Part shown: positions 1,660-11,006 of the stretch, in pieces
Layout: each line of letters opens with the position of its first letter
How positions within the stretch are numbered: the stretch's first letter is position 1
Assembly: GCA_038883795.1 (NCBI GenBank)
Contig: JAVZLK010000045.1
Location: 1-11,006, forward strand
Source of the DNA: Candidatus Bathyarchaeia archaeon
GTDB lineage: Archaea; Thermoproteota; Bathyarchaeia; Bathyarchaeales; Bathycorpusculaceae
DNA: 11,006 bases
Direction of reading: 5' to 3'
Position numbers and translations under genes: made by a program
The notes under the pieces: model-generated
What the model saw: only the letters and a program-made list of their open reading frames with translations
Database searches by the model: none
What the model was told of the DNA's origin: nothing

Positions 1660-4017
1660 TCACTGTTTGAGCATGTTGCATCCTTCGATTACGAAGATGT
1701 AGTTTTTTATTTTGCTGATTGGGTATGGCGCCATGAATGTTAGGTCTATGGTTTCTAGAAGTAGCATTTGCGTTTTATAGTCATCGCTTAATAGTAGTTG
1801 TGGCAGAACGTTTCCAAGCCTGCTATGTTCAGCCTTTAGAAGCGCGCATAAGTGGCTTTTTCCTTGGCTGTCAACAGCGTAAAGCCTCACTTGATCTATG
1901 AATGATTCTGAAAAGTTTAGCCCAGGCCAGCCTTCTACGAGTATGAAGCGAGCTTTATAGTTGGCTATACCCACATATTCTTTTTGTATCTGCACATGCC
2001 TTACCACGTCCTGATTAGTATCTGTGTGAATGTTTATGACGTGGAAGCTTATGTAAGTGCTACCGTTTCATATGAGCAGGGTTGGACAAGGAAATGTTTC
2101 GCCATCGCCTGTAGCATTAGTGAAGTAAGCTGTTAACGAGAGCGGGGCGTCCATCAGCACGCTTATCGGATTTACAAAATGAACTGCCCCGTCCAAGGTC
2201 CAGTGAGTGAAGATGAAGCCTTCTGATGCCACTGCTGTTACCGTTATATTGCTTCCCTCAACATGTTCATATGTTCCAGGCGTTGGATAGGTTGTTCCAC
2301 CACCATACGGTATTGAGACAGCATATATAGTGAGGTTGTAGTATGCTTTATAACGTGCCTCTATGTTTAAGTCGCATGTTAGCTGTATTGTTTTTGGATT
2401 GTCAGCGGAACCCTCTGCCCATTGGTCAAACTTGTATTTTATGGAGTTTATATAAACTGGAGATTGAACCTTGATTGTGTGTGTTCCCTCCGGCAGGATT
2501 AAGGAGAGTATCGGCGTGGAGTACTCGTTGCTATCTATCCAAACTTTAACGCCTGCTACTTCTCCTAATTTACTAAAACTAGTATGGATATCCATGTAGT
2601 GTGCACCCGTATACATATTCAAAGTTACTGATGTAGAAACGGTATAACCTTCAAGCCTGTCAAAATCGTAGTATAATGCCTCAGCCGTTATGGTTAGAAC
2701 ATGATCTGCGTTGTTTGAATCCATAAATGACCACTCAAACGTGCTGGCTAACGAGGCATCAAACGGCTCCCCTTGGACTTCCTGCCCACCTCCAGGTTCT
2801 TCGGCTTTACATATTGCGTAGACGAAGGATTCATTGTCTTCTGTTCCAGCCGCTTTATAGCGTTGTGTGGCGTTTGAGAATTTGGCCGATGCATAAGCCG
2901 CTGTAACATCATAAAGAACGAGTAGACCCCCTATAACCATCCCTGCACCTGACATTATTACACCAGCCCATTCAGCCCTAGAGATCAATACTTCTGCGGC
3001 GCCTTTTACACAAGTAGCCCAAAAATCTCCATAAGGATTTTCGGTGCTAAGTAGTTCAACGTTGTATCCGCTAATATATGAAATTAGTGGGTCCACCTTT
3101 GCTTTATTATCGTTTTTTGTTAATTTTATTTTTAGTTCTATCAATCTGCTTCCTTCATTTTGAGGGTATACGCCAAAATAACCGCTATTCTTGATTTCGC
3201 CGCTGTTTAAGCTGATGGAGTAACCTTGTAAGCCTAGCTGGTTTTCTACACCTATTGATGTTGGCAAGTCCTTGGTTATGCTTTTGTATTGAAAGAAGAT
3301 TTTATTATGGAAAACATCGCTACCCCATCCTCGTCTCTCTTGTATGAGCAATTGGAAGGTCTGTGGATTGCCGTTGGCATCTAGAACATTGTTCCAGCTC
3401 ACCACAAAATAATAATTACCATCCTCGCCGTTGAAGATTTTCTTGCCATACGTTATTGAGCCGCCATGATTGGGCTTTAAGTCTCTCCAAAAAGGCGCAA
3501 TCACCGCATTTGGGGTGCTGTTGCTGGGGATGGATTGCGGATTAGCCTCAGCAGATTCGGATGTTAAACTTATGAAGCCATTGCTGCAAACCCATATGCG
3601 CCAATACTCCACGCCATAAAAGAGGAACGGAAAGCCTAGCTCAAGCCACACGCCCGCATCATCACCAGTTATGCCCGTCAGATTAGAAACTTCAAGCTAC
3701 TCAAAACCATGAACAGGAGGATTCCAAACATAGTCAATACCTCTACGAGTATTAGCAGAAACACAAACTTTTAAGCTCAAATGGTCTGCATTATAGGCAG
3801 GATCATTTTCGCTATATTTGCCAACTGTGACACCAATTGCTACTGCAGCCTCACCATCTGTAGAGGCTCTTTCAATAGTTTCATTAAACATTCTATCAGT
3901 TGACGGTCTGGGCTTTGACCAATCATAGTTTTCAGCATATGCCGGTAAAATGATAAACAGCGCTTGCAGCGCCAACAAAATAATTAACGTACTGCCTACA
4001 AGGCGCCTTGTTTTCAT
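1660..4017 (-). pseudogene. Large secreted/surface protein (785 codons in one frame) interrupted by in-frame TAG (3697-3699) and TGA (2068-2070). Signal peptide, nidogen/NIDO-like domain, hydrophobic hairpin, PEGA-like and divergent InlB B-repeat-like domains, CPTL..WNG C-terminal domain
   Basis: ORFs 3697..4017, 2068..3651 and 1660..2007 share one frame. The gaps translate cleanly: GFE*LEVSNLTGITGDDAGVWLELGFPFLFYG and CPTLLI*NGSTYISFHVINIH. NIDO-like motifs: DD...LGFPFLFYG, VCSNGFISL, IAPFWRDL, TFQ. B-repeat-like motif: GGTTYPTPG...VTAVASEGFIFTHW. Confidence 0.8.
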
Positions 4018-4991
4018 GGATATGCCACCGGGGGTTCAAGCTTCCTATAACTTACATGGAAAATTATGTCTTCATCGACGTTTACGGTTATGTTTGGTGT
4101 TAGGAAATTTGCTTCTGATTTGTAGAATACCCCGTCAAATTGGTATGTTGTAGAATTCAATTCTAATTGGGGTGGGAAGCTTATTTGATGCACTCCCTCT
4201 CTAACGAATATGATGATAGGAGTTTCATAGGTTACATGATCAACTGAAACATTAACACTGACAGAACGACCCTCACCCACAATCACTGCATCATTAAACG
4301 TAAGAATATGATAACCAGCATAGAAAATAAGACGGAAAGGCTGAATCAAGTTCTTATAAACAGATCCGTTGTAGTACACGATTTCGCATGTAATCTCCCT
4401 TTGATGAGTTTTATTATTCTGTGTGAAAAGTTCCCATTCAAATGAGCCTTTAAAATAACACCAGCTAGGGTTATTGGTGCCGGCTAAACTGATGTGGGCA
4501 GTTTTGCCGAAGCCAAAACTTGTCTTGGACAGATTCTCTAAATCAAACTCCGTTAGGAGCCAATCTACTTTAGATTTTTCGCTATCGTTCTTTACGTTAA
4601 AGTAAATGTTCTCAATGCGAGCATTTTTGCCGAACACTGCGACATTAATTTTAATGATCAGAGAAATTATATCAGCATAGTTATAAGCGACATCATCGTT
4701 ACTATAGGTTCCAATTGTTAGGCTAAATGAGGATAAGCATTCGGCATCAGAATATGTATTGCTTAGCAAGTCATCAATATAGTAAAAGCTACTGGTTGGT
4801 CTTGGGAATGACCATTCTTTTATTGGCAGTTCTTTTGTTTCGGCTATTGTTATTGGTTCTTTTATTATTCCTGTCAGTTTGAATGTTGTTAGTAGGCTTA
4901 ATGGCACTATTATTGATAGCAGAAAGGCTGTTTTCCAGCTTTTCAGACCGTTCATCTGCAAAGCCAGTTTCTCCAAAACTTTGAAGTTCAA
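4014..4991 (-). CDS. N-terminally membrane-anchored beta-rich protein, 325 aa; paralog of the downstream surface protein
   Basis: N-terminal TM segment (AFLLSIIVPLSLLTTF); its stop overlaps the next start (ATGA at 4017-4014); collinear motif similarity to 1660..4017. Start is TTG 4991 or ATG 4955. Confidence 0.85.
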   Translation of the reverse strand: MNFKVLEKLALQMNGLKSWKTAFLLSIIVPLSLLTTFKLTGIIKEPITIAETKELPIKEWSFPRPTSSFYYIDDLLSNTYSDAECLSSFSLTIGTYSNDDVAYNYADIISLIIKINVAVFGKNARIENIYFNVKNDSEKSKVDWLLTEFDLENLSKTSFGFGKTAHISLAGTNNPSWCYFKGSFEWELFTQNNKTHQREITCEIVYYNGSVYKNLIQPFRLIFYAGYHILTFNDAVIVGEGRSVSVNVSVDHVTYETPIIIFVREGVHQISFPPQLELNSTTYQFDGVFYKSEANFLTPNITVNVDEDIIFHVSYRKLEPPVAYP

Positions 4992-5813: not shown

Positions 5814-8763
5814 TTGTCGGGTAGAATTACGGAACGCACACTTTATCCTTTCATCGGCAAGGTTTTTGAGAGTTTAGGCTGGCGTTATTTTTCTGAAACC
5901 AGTTTAGATGAGCGCTTTCCTGATTTAGTTCTGGAAAGCGACGGCGCGAAGGTTATTTCTGAAGTTAAAATTGATTCTGAGATTCAGTTGACTAAGGCAA
6001 TTATTGATGCTGACCAAAAGGCACGGAGACTCGGAACTCGTAATGCCGTTGCCCTGCTCTTTCCGAGCTATGTGCGTGGTATCCCTTTAAGCGAGTTAGA
6101 GCGAAACTATCCTCGCATGAAAGTTTCTGCTTTGGTTTTGACGGATTGGCTTGCTGAAAGAAAAGAATTAACTCTTGAAGATTTAGCAGAAGCGTTTACA
6201 ACATCCTTCAAGGATTGGCTTGAAACTAAGAAGACCAGGGTTAGTTATGATTTGGTTGTCGATGTTGCGCGCGATTCTATTCGAGAAATTGCTGGCTATT
6301 TGCGACAAGGTCTCTCCCAAAAACCTGTTTTTGACAGTGCAATGGCTGTTGTGGGACGTTTTGACATTTACAAGAGTCTGCTTGAAGATTTTTCTGGTGT
6401 AAAAGAGGATGAAGCAAAATTATACATTGCGGATATAACGGCATACATTTTAGTAAATCAGCTTCTCTTTTACCACATCGTATCAGAAAAGCTTGGATAC
6501 GATAAGCTGCCTGATGTTGACCCGTTAAATCCACCAAAGGATTTCCTCGACATTTTGGATGAAACTTTCAAGAGGGCCAGGGAGACTTATCCGCATATTC
6601 TTGGTTTCGATTTATTTCCTGTTCTCCAGGGCGATTATAGGATCGTTTATTCCATTGCAAGAATATTGTCAACTTTGAAGGCACTTCGTCCACAGCATAT
6701 CCGAGAGGACCTTTTTGGCAGACTTTACCATGAAACTATCCCACCTGAGACTAGAAAGAATCTTGGCGCTTTTTACACCAAACCTGAAGCTGCAAAGCTT
6801 TTGGCTGCGCTTGCCATCGACTGGTGGTATGCAAAAGTTCTTGATCTTGCGTGCGGTTCTGGAACACTTTTTAGTAGAGGCTTATCATCGAAAGGCGCAA
6901 TTAGCCCCACCTATGACCCGCGAAGAGCTACATAAACGCTTAATCAATGAGATTTACGGAATTGACGTTATGCACTTCGCATTTCACATGACCTCCATGA
7001 ACCTAACAGCTCAAGATATAGATGTCCCTCTGAAGCCTCATGTAATGAGCCAAGATGGAATAAAGGTGATGATTCAATCAGCCCAAGAAAGTCAAAGTGC
7101 CAATGACCCACCAAAAAGGGCTGAACAGTCAATTGCTAAATGGTTAGAAATAATGAAAGAAGAAAGGATACCGAAAGATTTTGATGTCGTTATCATGAAT
7201 CCGCCTTTCACGAGACGGGAACGCATCCCTGCCAAAAAAGAAGATCTAGAGCAGCTGGTTCCAGAGGTTAAGGGGAAAACCGGATACTGGGCATACTTTG
7301 TAGTTGCGGCAGACAAACTGTTGAAGGAGGATGGTGTGCTTGCCATAGTTATACCCGAGGAATTCTTCGTTGGAAGATCCGCTCAAAGTATTAGAGAATA
7401 TCTTTTTGAAAGAGGATACACCATCAGACATATTTTGAGAAGCGCTGCAGAAGTTGCGTTCAGTGAATCAGCACATTATCGGGATTATTTGATCATATTG
7501 CAAAAAGGTTCAAAAGATAGGCCACTTGTTCTTTCCGTCTTGAAGAAGAAACTAGATGACATACGTGAAAAAGTCGATACATTAGCACTCAAAATCCGAG
7601 AATTTGAAACCTCTCCTGATAAGAGGCTGAATCTAGAGGAAATAGTTTCGCTTAAAATATCTAAAGCAAATGACTTTGTGAGGCGGCATATTGGCAATTT
7701 AAAGCCCCTTGTAGGATTCAACTCGGCGAAAGCATATGCTCTCGTTTTAGAATTATTGGATCAATTGAAAGATAGCCCTACAATGGAAGATTTTGTAGAA
7801 AATAAAACAATCGAGGTTAAAGTCTACAATCCTGGGCAATTCACCATAAAAGGAGTTGAAAAGTTCGCCCGCAAACTCTTCATAAGCAGATATGGCGCTA
7901 GAAGCCCTAACACAGTTTTCTTTCTAGATGGCATAAAAGATAGAACTGTATTTCTAAAAGTTAGAAAAACAAAAATGACCTTCGAAATTCCAGAGAGCGC
8001 TACAGTATTTTCGCTAAAAACCTATAGCAAAGTGAATCATATGGATATAACAGACGAGGAAGAACGCGCAATAATCGATGCTGAATCGATACCTCAGGAA
8101 ACGCTAAAATTGGCAAGTCTTCTTCCATTAAACAATGCAATTAGAGCGGCAAATGATGTATCCTCTGCATACAAAAATATTTCTGGTAACATTTTGTTGG
8201 TTAGAAAAGTAAGGTTAACATCACCAGATTTGTTTTGGACGGCCTTTTTGTCGAAAAATAAGATGCTAGGAACAACGTCAGCATTACTTAACATGAATAT
8301 AACAGATGCTACACTGGCGGTTCCATTAGTTCTATACCTTAACAGCACAATCACCTTCTTGCAACTAATCGCTTTTATGGCAGAAACAGAAGGCGCATGG
8401 GTTACATTCCATGGAAAACAGGTATGGAGCCATCTCTACATGCCAAAACTTGAAAAACTACAAAAAGCAATAAAGAAAGCACAGGAACTCTTTAAAAATA
8501 TTCGCAAAATTGATGCTAAACCTCTTTTCAGGCGTATCAAGGAGCATGACACTATCCAGAGAGCTATCGATGAGCCGGCGCTAGAAATGCTTGGGCTCGA
8601 GGAGTGGAAACCACGTCTAGATGAAATTTATGACGCCACAGCAAAAGAACTAGAAATCATGCACAAAATCCTAGAATCAACAGGAAAACCGTTCAAAAAA
8701 CCAAAAACAACAATAGAAAAGAAAGGAGAAGCTGAAACCATAACAAAATGGCTAGAGAAATAA
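5814..8763 (+). pseudogene. Type IIG-like fused restriction endonuclease / amino (N6-adenine) DNA methyltransferase, about 982 aa if repaired; +1 frameshift in a T5 run at 6868-6872
   Basis: N-terminal nuclease motif (TE...FPDLVL...SEVKID); RKNLGAFYTKP (motif X); VLDLACGSGTL (motif I); IYGID; FDVVIMNPPF (motif IV); LAIVIP. Removing one T joins ORFs 5814..6935 and 6715..8763 as GSGTLLVEAYHRK. Confidence 0.9.
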
Positions 8764-8805: not shown

Positions 8806-8971
8806 AGTATATCTGCAACTCCTGTTTATGCTACCGGCGCTTTCAATAACCACGCGACAAGAATAGTCTTGCATAAGCATACGAAAATACTCGAATAAGG
8901 AGACGCTGATTCACCTATTCTTTGACCATGCGCTTGGCAAATATGAAGCACACGTTGATATGTCCGTTTTT

Positions 8972-9014
8972 GGATACTGTCCATTGCGAGCCTCGCCAAA
9001 GGATACTGTCCTTT
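8972..9014. repeat. Two copies of GGATACTGTCC (8972-8982 and 9001-9011), each the centre of a short palindrome
   Basis: TGGA-tactg-TCCA and AAAGGA-tactg-TCCTTT, 29 bp apart, upstream of the integrase. Confidence 0.5.
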
Positions 9015-9183
9015 GCTAGCGGCAGAAAATTCTTGTGGTTTTCTGGTGAATGTGTAATGGGGCATGGGTTTGATGGTTGAGTTTGTTGTTGGCGTTAATC
9101 GGCAAAGGATTGTGTATATGACCACTGAGATTGTCGGAAATCTAGTTACGATTGGACTATGGTGCCCTGTACAGCCTAATTAA

Positions 9184-10644
9184 GTGGCAAAAATGACTGT
9201 TGTGGCAGCGGGAGAAAAGCTTGGTCTTCCACAAGCGCCTTCCGGCGCAGCTCGGCAAAAGCGAGTTAAAAATGGGAAGTCCGCTGAGAAGAGCGGCTCG
9301 CACAAGGCCTCTATACGCTGCCCAGAATGCGCATCGCAACGCGTTTGGAAGGATGGTCTTCGTAAGACCGGTAGGGGTAAAGTGCAAAGGTGGCTATGTC
9401 GAAGCTGTGGCTTTAGATTCAGCGAGTCGACTGCGAACAACCAAGTAAAGGTCGACGTCTTCGGCCAACCCTTTAAACAGTCGGATGCGCGACAGGGTCT
9501 TCTGCAGTCGGATGTCTTTCAAAGTGAGTTTTCCGTCGAGCCATCCTTGGAGAACTGTCCTCTCAAGAGGTGTGAAGATATAGGTTCGCATATCTCATCG
9601 AAAAAGACTATGACAGAGAAAACTATATATGCCTTTTCAGACTATAATAGAGATCGCCGAGTATGCGTCTCGGAAGCCGAGGCGAAAAACTTGGCTGCAG
9701 TCGAATCCCGACAGGAAGTAGCCCAGCGGGAGGGCACAACGCAGTCAACAGTCAGCATTGAAGGTGAAATACTACGCTACTTGGTCTGGCTGAAGAATCA
9801 AGCCTACAGCCATTATACAATCAGAAGCAGAGCCAATCTTTTGAAAAGTTTCGTCAAAATGAAAGCAAATTTGAGTGATCCTGATTCGGTCAAGGAAGTA
9901 ATAGCCAATGCAAACAATTGGAGCCAAACAACGAAACTTCTCGCGACAACAGCTTACGACAGTTTTCTGAAGTGGCAAGGCAAAACTTGGATTTCCCCAA
10001 GATATAGACAAACCCAAAAATTGCCCTTCATTCCAACTGAAGAAGAGCTTGATGCTTTGATTACTATATCTGGAAAGAAACTTGCAACAATGCTCCAGAT
10101 CCTAAAAGAAACAGGTGCCAGACTCGGTGAAGCCTTCAAACTTGAGTGGACTGACATCGATTTCGAACGCTCCACATTAAGAATCAATCATCCAGAAAAG
10201 GGAAGCAACCCTCGAATTCTGCCGATTACCAAGAAACTTGCCAGTATGATAAACACGCTTCCAAAAAAGGGTTCAAGAATCTTTGGTGGCGGAAGCCTTA
10301 GAACCTTCGAAACATCCTTCTGGAATCAAAGAAGGAGAGCAGCCGCCAAACTTCAAAATCCACGACTGAAAGCCATTACTTTCCACACTTTCCGACATTG
10401 GAAAGCAACAATGGAATACCACAAAACGCATGACATATTCCACGTTCAGAAACTTCTCGGACACAAAAACATCCAGAACACAGCAATCTACATTACCCTG
10501 GAAAACAGTGTATTTCAAACAAAAGAAGACGACTTTCACGTTGCAGTCGCCAAAACACTGGAAGAAGCATGCAAACTAGTGGAAGTAGGCTTTGAATACG
10601 TCTGTAGCATGGACAATGCGAAAATCTTCAGAAAGCGAAAATAA
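9184..10644 (+). CDS. Tyrosine recombinase/integrase with an N-terminal IS1/InsA-like C4 zinc ribbon; possible internal start at TTG 9691
   Basis: Complete catalytic set: ETGAR (R), PEKGS (K), FHTFRH (HxxR), LLGH (H), TAIY (Y). Zn ribbon CPEC-x22-CRSC at 9319-9408. Confidence 0.95.
   Translation: MAKMTVVAAGEKLGLPQAPSGAARQKRVKNGKSAEKSGSHKASIRCPECASQRVWKDGLRKTGRGKVQRWLCRSCGFRFSESTANNQVKVDVFGQPFKQSDARQGLLQSDVFQSEFSVEPSLENCPLKRCEDIGSHISSKKTMTEKTIYAFSDYNRDRRVCVSEAEAKNLAAVESRQEVAQREGTTQSTVSIEGEILRYLVWLKNQAYSHYTIRSRANLLKSFVKMKANLSDPDSVKEVIANANNWSQTTKLLATTAYDSFLKWQGKTWISPRYRQTQKLPFIPTEEELDALITISGKKLATMLQILKETGARLGEAFKLEWTDIDFERSTLRINHPEKGSNPRILPITKKLASMINTLPKKGSRIFGGGSLRTFETSFWNQRRRAAAKLQNPRLKAITFHTFRHWKATMEYHKTHDIFHVQKLLGHKNIQNTAIYITLENSVFQTKEDDFHVAVAKTLEEACKLVEVGFEYVCSMDNAKIFRKRK
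9394..9591 (-). CDS. Small basic helical protein (65 aa) nested antisense within the integrase N-terminal extension; candidate regulator or directionality factor
   Basis: ATG start with an ATATATAG TATA-like element 32-39 nt upstream. Amphipathic helical pattern (FTPLERTVLQGWLDG...LSRIRLFKGLAEDVDLYL). The opposite-strand integrase segment reads like an unstructured linker. Confidence 0.6.
   Translation of the reverse strand: MRTYIFTPLERTVLQGWLDGKLTLKDIRLQKTLSRIRLFKGLAEDVDLYLVVRSRLAESKATAST
9613..9693. promoter_or_regulatory. Putative bidirectional promoter and RBS inside the integrase ORF
   Basis: CAGAGAAAA-CTATATAT (BRE plus TATA, readable on both strands, 9614-9630); GAGGCG at 9679-9684, 6 nt before the in-frame TTG 9691. 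Confidence 0.5.
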
Positions 10645-10730
10645 AAGATAAAGATGAAAAATAAAAGGTAAAGTTTAAAATGTTCTGAGTAGTAGAAGTG
10701 TTCACAAATCTGAATGTTACGAGGGAAAAA

Positions 10731-11006
10731 TTGATGAACCTCTCGCTTAAAAAAATTAAATCTATAATAATTTTGTTCTTAATCATATCAACAATCACAA
10801 CTATCTCGCTTATGCCAAAAGTGAATGCGGAAGTAACAATTTCCATAGAACCAACTGAAGGGTATGTTGGCGCAAACGTCACATTAACAGCAAACATAAC
10901 AACTCCTAATGGACGATACGAAATTTTGTTTGATGGAAACTTGTTGCTAAGCGATAATGCGACTGGAAACAGCGTGGAAACGTCAATTACTATTCCTCCA
11001 GCGCCT
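10731..11006 (+). CDS. 5' end of a secreted/surface Ig-like-domain protein; 3'-truncated by the window edge
   Basis: GAGGG RBS, TTG 10731/ATG 10734, open to the end of the window: MNLSLKKIKSIIILFLIISTITTISLMPKVNA-EVTISIEPTEGYVGANVTLTANITT... Signal peptide, several N-x-T sequons, TTTAAA box at 10674-10679. Confidence 0.85.
   Translation, partial: MMNLSLKKIKSIIILFLIISTITTISLMPKVNAEVTISIEPTEGYVGANVTLTANITTPNGRYEILFDGNLLLSDNATGNSVETSITIPPAP

Follow-up and report, generated by a model that had tools for sequence, protein, structure and literature searches.

Can a conserved protein gene lie entirely within another gene, on the opposite strand, with both readings kept by selection? This question is raised by an 11,006-nt stretch of DNA from a Candidatus Bathyarchaeia archaeon (contig JAVZLK010000045.1 of assembly GCA_038883795.1; hereafter, the window). 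In the window, an integrase open reading frame (ORF) of 486 amino acids on the plus strand (9184..10644; GTG at 9184, with an ATG at 9193) is overlapped by a 65-amino-acid ORF on the minus strand at 9394..9591. The initial annotation, made from the letters of the window alone, had taken this second ORF for a real overlapping gene in dual-coding DNA. We will use the terms “small gene” and “small protein” for the ORF and its putative product. The open frames, the codon periodicity and the ratio of nonsynonymous to synonymous substitution rates (dN/dS) across related loci bear the earlier proposal out, and 9394..9591 is very probably a genuine nested antisense protein gene that shares its DNA with the integrase.

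The small gene begins with ATG, and its coordinates include the stop codon. Its product (MRTYIFTPLER...) lies opposite integrase residues 71–136, which comprise the last zinc-ribbon cysteine pair and the linker that follows. The ATG-started antisense ORF and the integrase frame open across it are both as first described. Their coordinates put the two frames in exact codon register, so that antisense position 3 pairs with sense position 1. In this register, the small frame is stopped only by the sense codons TTA, CTA and TCA, of which the window's integrase has nine. Synonymous-codon shuffling of the integrase gave an ATG-started antisense ORF of at least 65 codons in 1251 of 2000 shuffles, a result for the window alone that counts against reading anything into ORF length. 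Since the small ORF is unremarkable by this measure, its reality hangs on comparison across loci. Conservation across related loci, not ORF length in the window, is what exceeds chance.

Relatives were gathered in several ways. A word-indexed protein search with the small protein returned 13 homologues of 61–65 amino acids (62–91% identity), two of them named by NCBI as Bathyarchaeota hypothetical proteins, in agreement with the MRxYIFTxxER proteins that the initial annotation had named for Bathyarchaeia. The alignment of homologues has 18 invariant columns, and the replacements in it are conservative. Back-translated pattern scans supplied 12 loci from species-representative genomes, and in the JGI metagenomes 117 relatives were confirmed, of which the best 80 were used. 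The small proteins include 70 distinct sequences with identity down to 39%. A second copy of the small gene was not found in the window's own genome.

Nearly all copies have both frames open. Across the small ORF, the integrase frame on the other strand is free of stops in 90 of 92 related loci, and the other two antisense frames have 1–12 stops in each of the 92. At the aligned start of the small ORF (n = 93 with the window), ATG is found in 82 cases, TTG in six and TGA in two; in the remaining three the contig ends there. The ORF is 58–67 amino acids long in 85 of the 87 complete copies. Interruption of the antisense frame in relatives, the outcome that had been named at the outset as speaking against a gene, was not seen where the linker is present, and purifying selection was found.

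The pattern of variation indicates which reading dominates. Codon-position diversity was calculated from 58 distinct full-length integrase genes and is given here as sense positions 1/2/3. The values are 0.41/0.32/0.64 in the zinc ribbon, 0.42/0.34/0.64 in the core and 0.53/0.19/0.30 in the overlap (sense residues 85–136), and this last set follows the small frame in its periodicity. For position 1 minus position 3, bootstrapping gives an interval of [0.17, 0.29] in the overlap, which excludes 0, and of [-0.24, -0.20] in the core. Counted in the manner of OLGenie, the small frame has dNN/dSN of 0.10–0.14 and dNS/dSS of 0.15–0.39, and the integrase frame has dNN/dNS of 0.33–0.48 and dSN/dSS of 0.64–0.95 across the overlap. 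These ratios point to strong purifying selection on the small frame at the amino acid level. They also indicate an integrase reading of the overlap that is weakly constrained in sequence yet kept stop-free. The protein-level constraint of the small protein extends over residues 1–52.

Maintenance of the integrase frame can be read from the codons that the nested small ORFs avoid. The leucine codons TTA and CTA and the serine codon TCA place a stop in the integrase frame, and in 74 distinct nested small ORFs TTA and CTA account for 7 of 732 leucine codons and TCA for 2 of 351 serine codons. In the integrase core, TTA and CTA make up 29% of the leucine codons and TCA 20% of the serine codons. 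Free-standing homologues of the small protein, which are described below, use TTA or CTA for 22 of 104 leucines and TCA for 1 of 17 serines. The totals are 9 of 1083 integrase-stopping leucine and serine codons in the nested ORFs versus 23 of 121 in the free-standing ones, and the antisense frame is stop-free in just 2 of 10 free-standing copies. In the other direction, sense codons that would stop the small frame make up 0.43% of codons in the overlap versus 4.0% in the core. This mutual avoidance of stop-making codons argues that both frames are maintained by selection.

Several observations weigh against a dual-coding gene and have to be set beside this evidence. Most of the loci were retrieved with the small protein as the query, which favours copies that conserve it, and the sequences share ancestry, so the counts are of non-independent events. 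A less biased sample was obtained by searching integrase residues 137–192, which lie outside the small ORF, against 401 genomes of the class. All four loci with the same linker type (L152, L155, L156 and L162) retain the small ORF, with hidden Markov model (HMM) E-values of 4e-27 to 2e-20, and a fifth (L153), with a different linker, lacks it; the check comprises these four loci only. The integrase frame contains stops in 2 of the 92 loci (L021 and L056), and the small ORF is frameshifted in two copies (L017 and L085). Sense residues 71–84 follow the integrase periodicity (0.33/0.17/0.51), which suggests that the last ~12 residues of the small protein may be passengers; these residues are antisense to the zinc-ribbon motif CGFRFSE, where the integrase frame dominates. 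The small gene is missing from 34 of 36 loci picked by core similarity (seven paralogues from the window's own genome and 29 others), two carrying it, so that the recombinase does not in general need it. None of the sequencing runs listed as containing the stretch is recorded as RNA. A raw-read RNA run contributed no reads to the stretch, which is no test of expression, and the contigs of two hot-spring runs (X1 and X2) that are labelled metatranscriptomic are probably DNA.

The host gene can be assigned to the tyrosine recombinases on the strength of a match above a curated cut-off and of conserved catalytic residues. The Phage_integrase model (PF00589) matches residues 285–439 (E-value 3.9e-22; 79.3 bits versus a cut-off of 27.1), and R404, H405, H427 and Y436 are invariant across 58 integrase sequences. 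The recombinase core comprises residues 188–486 (9745..10641, plus strand), with a predicted local distance difference test score (pLDDT) above 90. Two NCBIfam models, XerA-like NF040815 (3.7e-31) and an IS1/IS1595 zinc domain (1.6e-5), match the protein with scores under their cut-offs. The zinc-ribbon domain occupies residues 42–82 (9307..9429, plus strand; CPEC...CRSC) and has predicted strands at residues 54–80 with pLDDT of 74–83. Zinc-ribbon models match residues 42–80, also under their cut-offs, and C46, C49, C72 and C75 are invariant or almost so in the integrase alignment.

Between the two domains lies the linker (residues 83–187; 9430..9744, plus strand), which holds the small gene, its promoter zone and a segment conserved at the DNA level. 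It is predicted to be disordered, with pLDDT below 50 and no secondary structure. The integrase, whose full-length product would be of ~55 kDa, is predicted to read the reverse of the small gene as part of this disordered linker of ~105 residues. The predicted disorder agrees with the weak sense-frame constraint in the overlap.

The small gene has a putative control region of its own, as the initial annotation had suggested. The A/T run claimed there as a TATA-like element, CATATATAG, is found on the minus strand at 9623–9631, 32–40 nt before the ATG. It is part of a larger element, GAAAAGG-CATATATAG (9623..9638, minus strand; 32–47 nt upstream of the ATG), that resembles a transcription factor B recognition element (BRE) followed by a TATA box and is kept in 66 distinct upstream regions. 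The most A/T-rich 8-mer begins at -41 to -39 in ~33 of these 66. By analogy with the architecture of archaeal promoters, the BRE/TATA-like element would act as the promoter of the small gene. It is flanked by two direct repeats, AGACTAT(G/A)A(C/T)AGAGA (9605–9619 and 9639–9653), which are candidate operator sites; of the 66 regions, 40 have the motif at -27 and 33 have it at -63, and both copies are conserved. A Shine-Dalgarno-like GATGA (9595..9599, minus strand) lies 3 nt upstream of the ATG and may have a role in translation. It includes an in-frame TGA, the upstream limit of the small frame, and its bases also encode a conserved Ser-Ser of the integrase.

In the orientation of the small gene, the conserved order across the 66 upstream regions is a hairpin (CCGAG-N7-CTCGG), a repeat (CTCT..ATAGTC), an A-rich stretch, the TATA-like element, the second repeat, GATGA, 3 nt and the ATG. 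The hairpin covaries to GTCAA/TTGAC in L012 and L013. Sense residues 137–160, which span this control zone, have equal diversity at the three codon positions (0.32/0.28/0.30), as expected if DNA signals and coding overlap.

The small protein also has relatives outside integrase genes. A profile search of 1.84 billion representatives returned 137 cluster representatives at E-values ≤1e-3 and 59 at ≤1e-10, nearly all of 54–66 amino acids and starting with MR(S/T)YIFT. The family is new and unannotated. A viral origin was considered and rejected, as 33 pattern matches to the small protein in IMG/VR yielded no confirmed relative. Longer forms also occur. One cluster (P0089/P0153; 160–200 amino acids, with one member named Baldrarchaeia) has an added C-terminal winged helix (HTH_5, 7.8e-5), and others of 130–158 amino acids have an added helical tail of 70–100 residues.

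The genomic context of this wider family was taken from 12 loci retrieved with the long-form alignment (L140–L151). No integrase lies within 1.5 kb of eleven of the 12; the remaining one (L149) is nested. ABC/SMC-like ATPases and a REase_MTES_1575 protein are among those encoded next to the free-standing copies. Both the free-standing members and the minority of integrases that carry the small gene depart from the picture in the initial annotation. Because free-standing members exist, the small gene is probably the older reading of the shared DNA and the integrase linker the younger one. Two free-standing loci look operon-like, an ABC/SMC-like ATPase gene being followed by a small homologue (81 amino acids) and then by an 85-amino-acid ORF.

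The predicted properties of the small protein bear on what it may do. It has a mass of 7.5 kDa and an isoelectric point (pI) of 10.1, the family median being 10.4. The AlphaFold2 model, built from the 70-sequence alignment, has a mean pLDDT of 87.6 and three helices (residues 8–18, 27–37 and 42–63) with no strands, in keeping with the basic helical protein first proposed. Similarity searches weigh against giving this protein a function. It belongs to no family in Pfam, PHROGs, NCBIfam or the PDB sequences, and it matches none of the excisionase and recombination directionality factor (RDF) models of Pfam and PHROGs at E-values ≤1 or 0.1. Foldseek found nothing at E-values ≤0.001 in the PDB or BFVD (best 4.2 and 0.57), VIA-align gave nothing above noise (best Z 4.6), and Atlas gave weak leads only. 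As regards a winged-helix or MerR-like helix-turn-helix (HTH) fold, the small-protein model has three helices and zero strands, and these fold searches gave no match beyond noise.

A relationship to the LuxR/GerE HTH family (PF00196) was considered and rejected. The motif of the first helix, FTxxERxxLxxWLxG, resembles LTxRExxVLxLxxxG, the Atlas model was aligned to a GerE region (template modelling score of 0.76 by query), and one row of the VIA comparison was of LuxR type (Z 3.8). However, the helix spacing of the small-protein model is different and an HMM match is absent. The hhalign probability is 0.8% over 15 columns and lends the relationship no support. The GerE profile matched none of the 70 members of the small-protein family at E-values ≤0.1, and a GerE search of the window's own genome gave no match at ≤1e-5.

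The integrase family of the host gene is widespread, and its members differ in their N-terminal parts. At E-values ≤1e-40, 174 of the 401 genomes sampled from the class have a match to the core, often in multiple copies, and the window's own 2.2-Mb genome has 23 integrase matches, including the window copy and partial fragments. Non-carriers of the small gene have the zinc ribbon and the core in one ORF, with a linker that is ~45–50 residues shorter and unrelated in sequence. Core-only integrase ORFs are also present in the family. In a tree of the cores, carriers are interleaved with non-carriers. The closest core to that of the window (L111, 74% identity) is without the small gene, and the N-terminal part of the window's gene has 85% DNA identity to L023 and L025, which have other cores. 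The mosaic boundaries fall within 9653–9810.

A segment of ~56 nt conserved at the DNA level (9683..9740), with a GC hairpin GCCC-N7-GGGC, lies in this zone of exchange between N-terminal module and core. The segment has 79–88% DNA identity to four paralogues in the window's own genome, and the proteins are 46–50% identical over the aligned C-terminal two thirds. Codon periodicity is absent from sense residues 161–187 (0.39/0.43/0.41). The contigs of the two hot-spring runs break at ~9655–9700, the depth being 5.8 and 8.4 on the left side and 19.9 and 56.1 on the right. The core depth is therefore 3–7 times that of the N-terminal part, and the same core is probably joined to other N-terminal modules in X1 and X2. 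Together, the mosaic boundaries, the conserved segment and the contig breaks argue that the N-terminal module (zinc ribbon, linker, small gene and promoter) is exchanged between integrase cores. Rfam gave no match in 9100–11006 at E-values ≤10. The GC hairpin in 9683–9740 covaries with GCTC/GAGC in L011.

The surroundings of related copies place these enzymes in genomic islands beside tRNA genes. Of 35 core-selected loci, 22 have flanking tRNA genes, at 37–59 nt past the 3' end of the integrase in the six that were measured by coordinates, and 11 of 60 carrier loci have a tRNA gene adjoining the 3' end. Thirty-seven contigs include a complete integrase C-terminus and terminate within 4 kb of it on that side; in 25 of them the contig end lies 28–198 nt after the stop codon. 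These positions indicate a family of tRNA-side island integrases. A tRNA gene near the window's own integrase copy was not found. Beyond the gene, the sole part of the flanks that is shared is 8951–9180, at the DNA level and among the closest relatives alone.

The conserved segment at 9683–9740, the contig breaks there and the core-only copies also led us to consider an attachment site inside the gene, of the type known from SSV, where the integrase gene is split on integration. This was rejected. The tRNA genes lie just past the 3' end, away from the internal segment, which itself has no match to a tRNA. Intact genes are found in long chromosomal contigs (244 kb, 414 kb and 1.9 Mb), and paralogous integrases are the only matches of the segment in the window's own genome (87% complete). 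L017 and L085 represent a decayed copy (~3785–4150), with a one-base insertion in the small ORF and a replaced promoter zone. A tRNA-Gly(GCC) gene lies ~95 nt upstream in them, and the integrase frame is open for just 80–100 codons.

Three other explanations of the small ORF have been weighed. Free-standing protein homologues, a three-base periodicity that is that of the small frame and a dN/dS of ~0.1 in that frame already contradict the view that the ORF is a chance product of integrase codon composition, or that its conservation reflects an antisense RNA or a DNA site. The start and length of the ORF are conserved, its replacements are conservative, and its fold is predicted with confidence. 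The shuffles, by which an ORF of this length is expected in the window, and the conservation of the neighbouring 9592–9744 at the DNA level without codon periodicity would fit such a view, which we nonetheless hold to be very improbable. It is also quite unlikely that the small gene is real and the integrase is not translated through it, the zinc ribbon and the core being separate products or the N-terminal part being unused. The small ORFs avoid integrase-stopping codons, which makes sense only if read-through matters. Weak constraint on the sense frame, predicted disorder and the lack of a codon periodicity of its own in the overlap, together with the core-only ORFs, would agree with an absence of read-through; against this, the integrase frame is open in almost all loci, and members without the small gene likewise join zinc ribbon and core in one ORF. 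A conserved in-frame start downstream of the overlap was not found either. A short integrase isoform was rejected for the same reason, and evidence for a separate long isoform, as named in the initial annotation, was not found: the in-frame methionine at residue 143 is not conserved.

The third explanation concerns the role of the protein. The small protein may be nested cargo unrelated to integration, such as a defence, anti-defence or maintenance factor, in a tolerant linker, travelling along with the N-terminal module. This is the main rival and is possible, although we consider it on the doubtful side. The free-standing homologues adjoin ABC/SMC-like ATPases and the REase_MTES_1575 protein and not integrases, most integrases of the family do without the small gene, and resemblance to known excisionases was not found. 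On the other hand, in more than 100 loci the small gene is physically locked to an integrase with a conserved control region in common, and in one relative the protein is joined to a DNA-binding domain of the winged-helix type. Many recombination accessory factors are small and basic, as the small protein is. Because of these features, and because its transcription would run head-on into the integrase, the small protein may serve the integrase module as a DNA-binding accessory factor, be it as a regulator or as a directionality factor, an assignment that we favour with somewhat less than even confidence. The repressor or excisionase-like factor and the antisense silencing put forward in the initial annotation are likewise hypotheses.

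Under the preferred reading of a nested, dual-coding gene, a basic three-helix protein of ~60 residues would have its coding region entirely within the tyrosine-integrase gene of a genomic island in Bathyarchaeia. In the likeliest history, an already existing gene, equipped with a BRE/TATA-like promoter, would have lodged in the integrase linker, and the integrase would then have come to be translated across its antisense strand. If the small protein is an accessory factor, it could act at the two repeats that flank its promoter. Transcription of the small gene would run head-on into transcription of the integrase, and the two products would for this reason tend to alternate.

A more far-reaching proposal would combine these elements into a portable gene-within-gene module. 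In such a module, an older regulator gene with its own promoter would lie antisense in the disordered linker of a tRNA-targeting integrase. The N-terminal module as a whole (zinc ribbon, linker and small gene) would be swapped between cores by recombination at the ~56-nt segment, and the head-on arrangement would form a switch that decides whether the island stays or moves. The linker would be a de novo reading of the opposite strand of the small gene, and either the integrase or the small factor (a directionality factor or a repressor) would be made. We regard the full combination as unlikely, though worth stating.

Long antisense overlapping genes in prokaryotes are disputed, most candidates being young, lineage-restricted and backed mainly by expression data. 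An antisense gene with both readings kept by evolution is rare. The closest known cases are bacterial antisense overlapping genes. The papers on olg1/olg2 of Pseudomonas aeruginosa (PMC8850804) and on the antisense genes of E. coli O157:H7 (PMC9927249) describe nested protein genes whose translation is reported. As described there, these genes resemble the present one in being ORFs fully embedded in antisense, with purifying selection reported. They are described as evolutionarily young, whereas the family of the small protein comprises free-standing relatives and over 130 diverged cluster representatives. The host here is also archaeal and a mobile-element integrase, with the linker probably the younger reading. 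The bacterial cases differ further in their reported translation, the evidence for the small gene being comparative. A description of such an arrangement was not found in the literature covered, which included PMC10541130 and excluded most subscription journals and supplements.

Other comparisons can be drawn with the control of recombinases. Excisionases and other RDFs such as lambda Xis are small, basic, encoded at the integrase gene and bind DNA near att sites or int control regions. The small protein is likewise small, basic and encoded at an integrase gene, and it would be expected to bind DNA in such regions too. However, sequence or fold similarity to these proteins was not found, the gene is nested in antisense instead of adjacent, and it is missing from most integrases of the same family. 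In integrons, intI contains the cassette promoter Pc on its opposite strand, and the transposase of IS10 is under the control of the antisense RNA-OUT. The putative promoter of the small gene is similarly inside a recombinase gene and opposed to it, so that head-on interference or antisense pairing with the recombinase mRNA may occur. The difference is that the embedded transcript would here encode a conserved protein, with its coding region within the recombinase ORF. The host integrase resembles the tRNA-targeting integrases of archaeal islands in its PF00589 core, the invariant HxxR...H...Y residues and the tRNA genes 37–59 nt past the 3' end in six loci. It differs from them in its IS1/IS1595-like N-terminal zinc ribbon, its ~105-residue disordered linker and the lack of a tRNA gene found near the window copy.

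The comparative signal at this locus is unusually clean. Two opposite-strand frames are open in more than 100 diverged loci, the embedded gene dominates and the host linker tolerates it, and the free-standing homologues serve as an internal control for the nested copies. The locus is a natural system for studying how genes become nested and how the reverse side of one gene can supply another with a disordered linker. It may also be used to ask whether the mobility of an island is governed by head-on transcription within its recombinase gene. These questions are relevant to the uncultured Bathyarchaeia, where the integrase family is very common.

Some further features of the window and of single loci can be added. 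One carrier (L014, JABXJW010000352.1) is on a 2.9-kb contig binned in a Desulfobacterales metagenome-assembled genome, and all other named records are Bathyarchaeia; its assignment is probably due to mis-binning rather than transfer. Upstream of the integrase start, direct repeats with the sequence GGATACTGTCC(A/T)TTGC are found at 8972–9020 and 9099–9115, 29 nt apart. The repeats each contain the palindrome CAAAGGA-N5-TCCTTTG, and a similar unit forms a loose end in run X1 at 9021. They may be binding sites of the recombinase or the zinc ribbon, or belong to the promoter region of the integrase. Further upstream, an Eco57I/N6_Mtase-like restriction-modification gene (5814–8763) is present as two overlapping ORFs (5814–6935 and 6715–8763), which may reflect a frameshift or a programmed split. 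Its position just upstream of the integrase is the one expected for a defence island.

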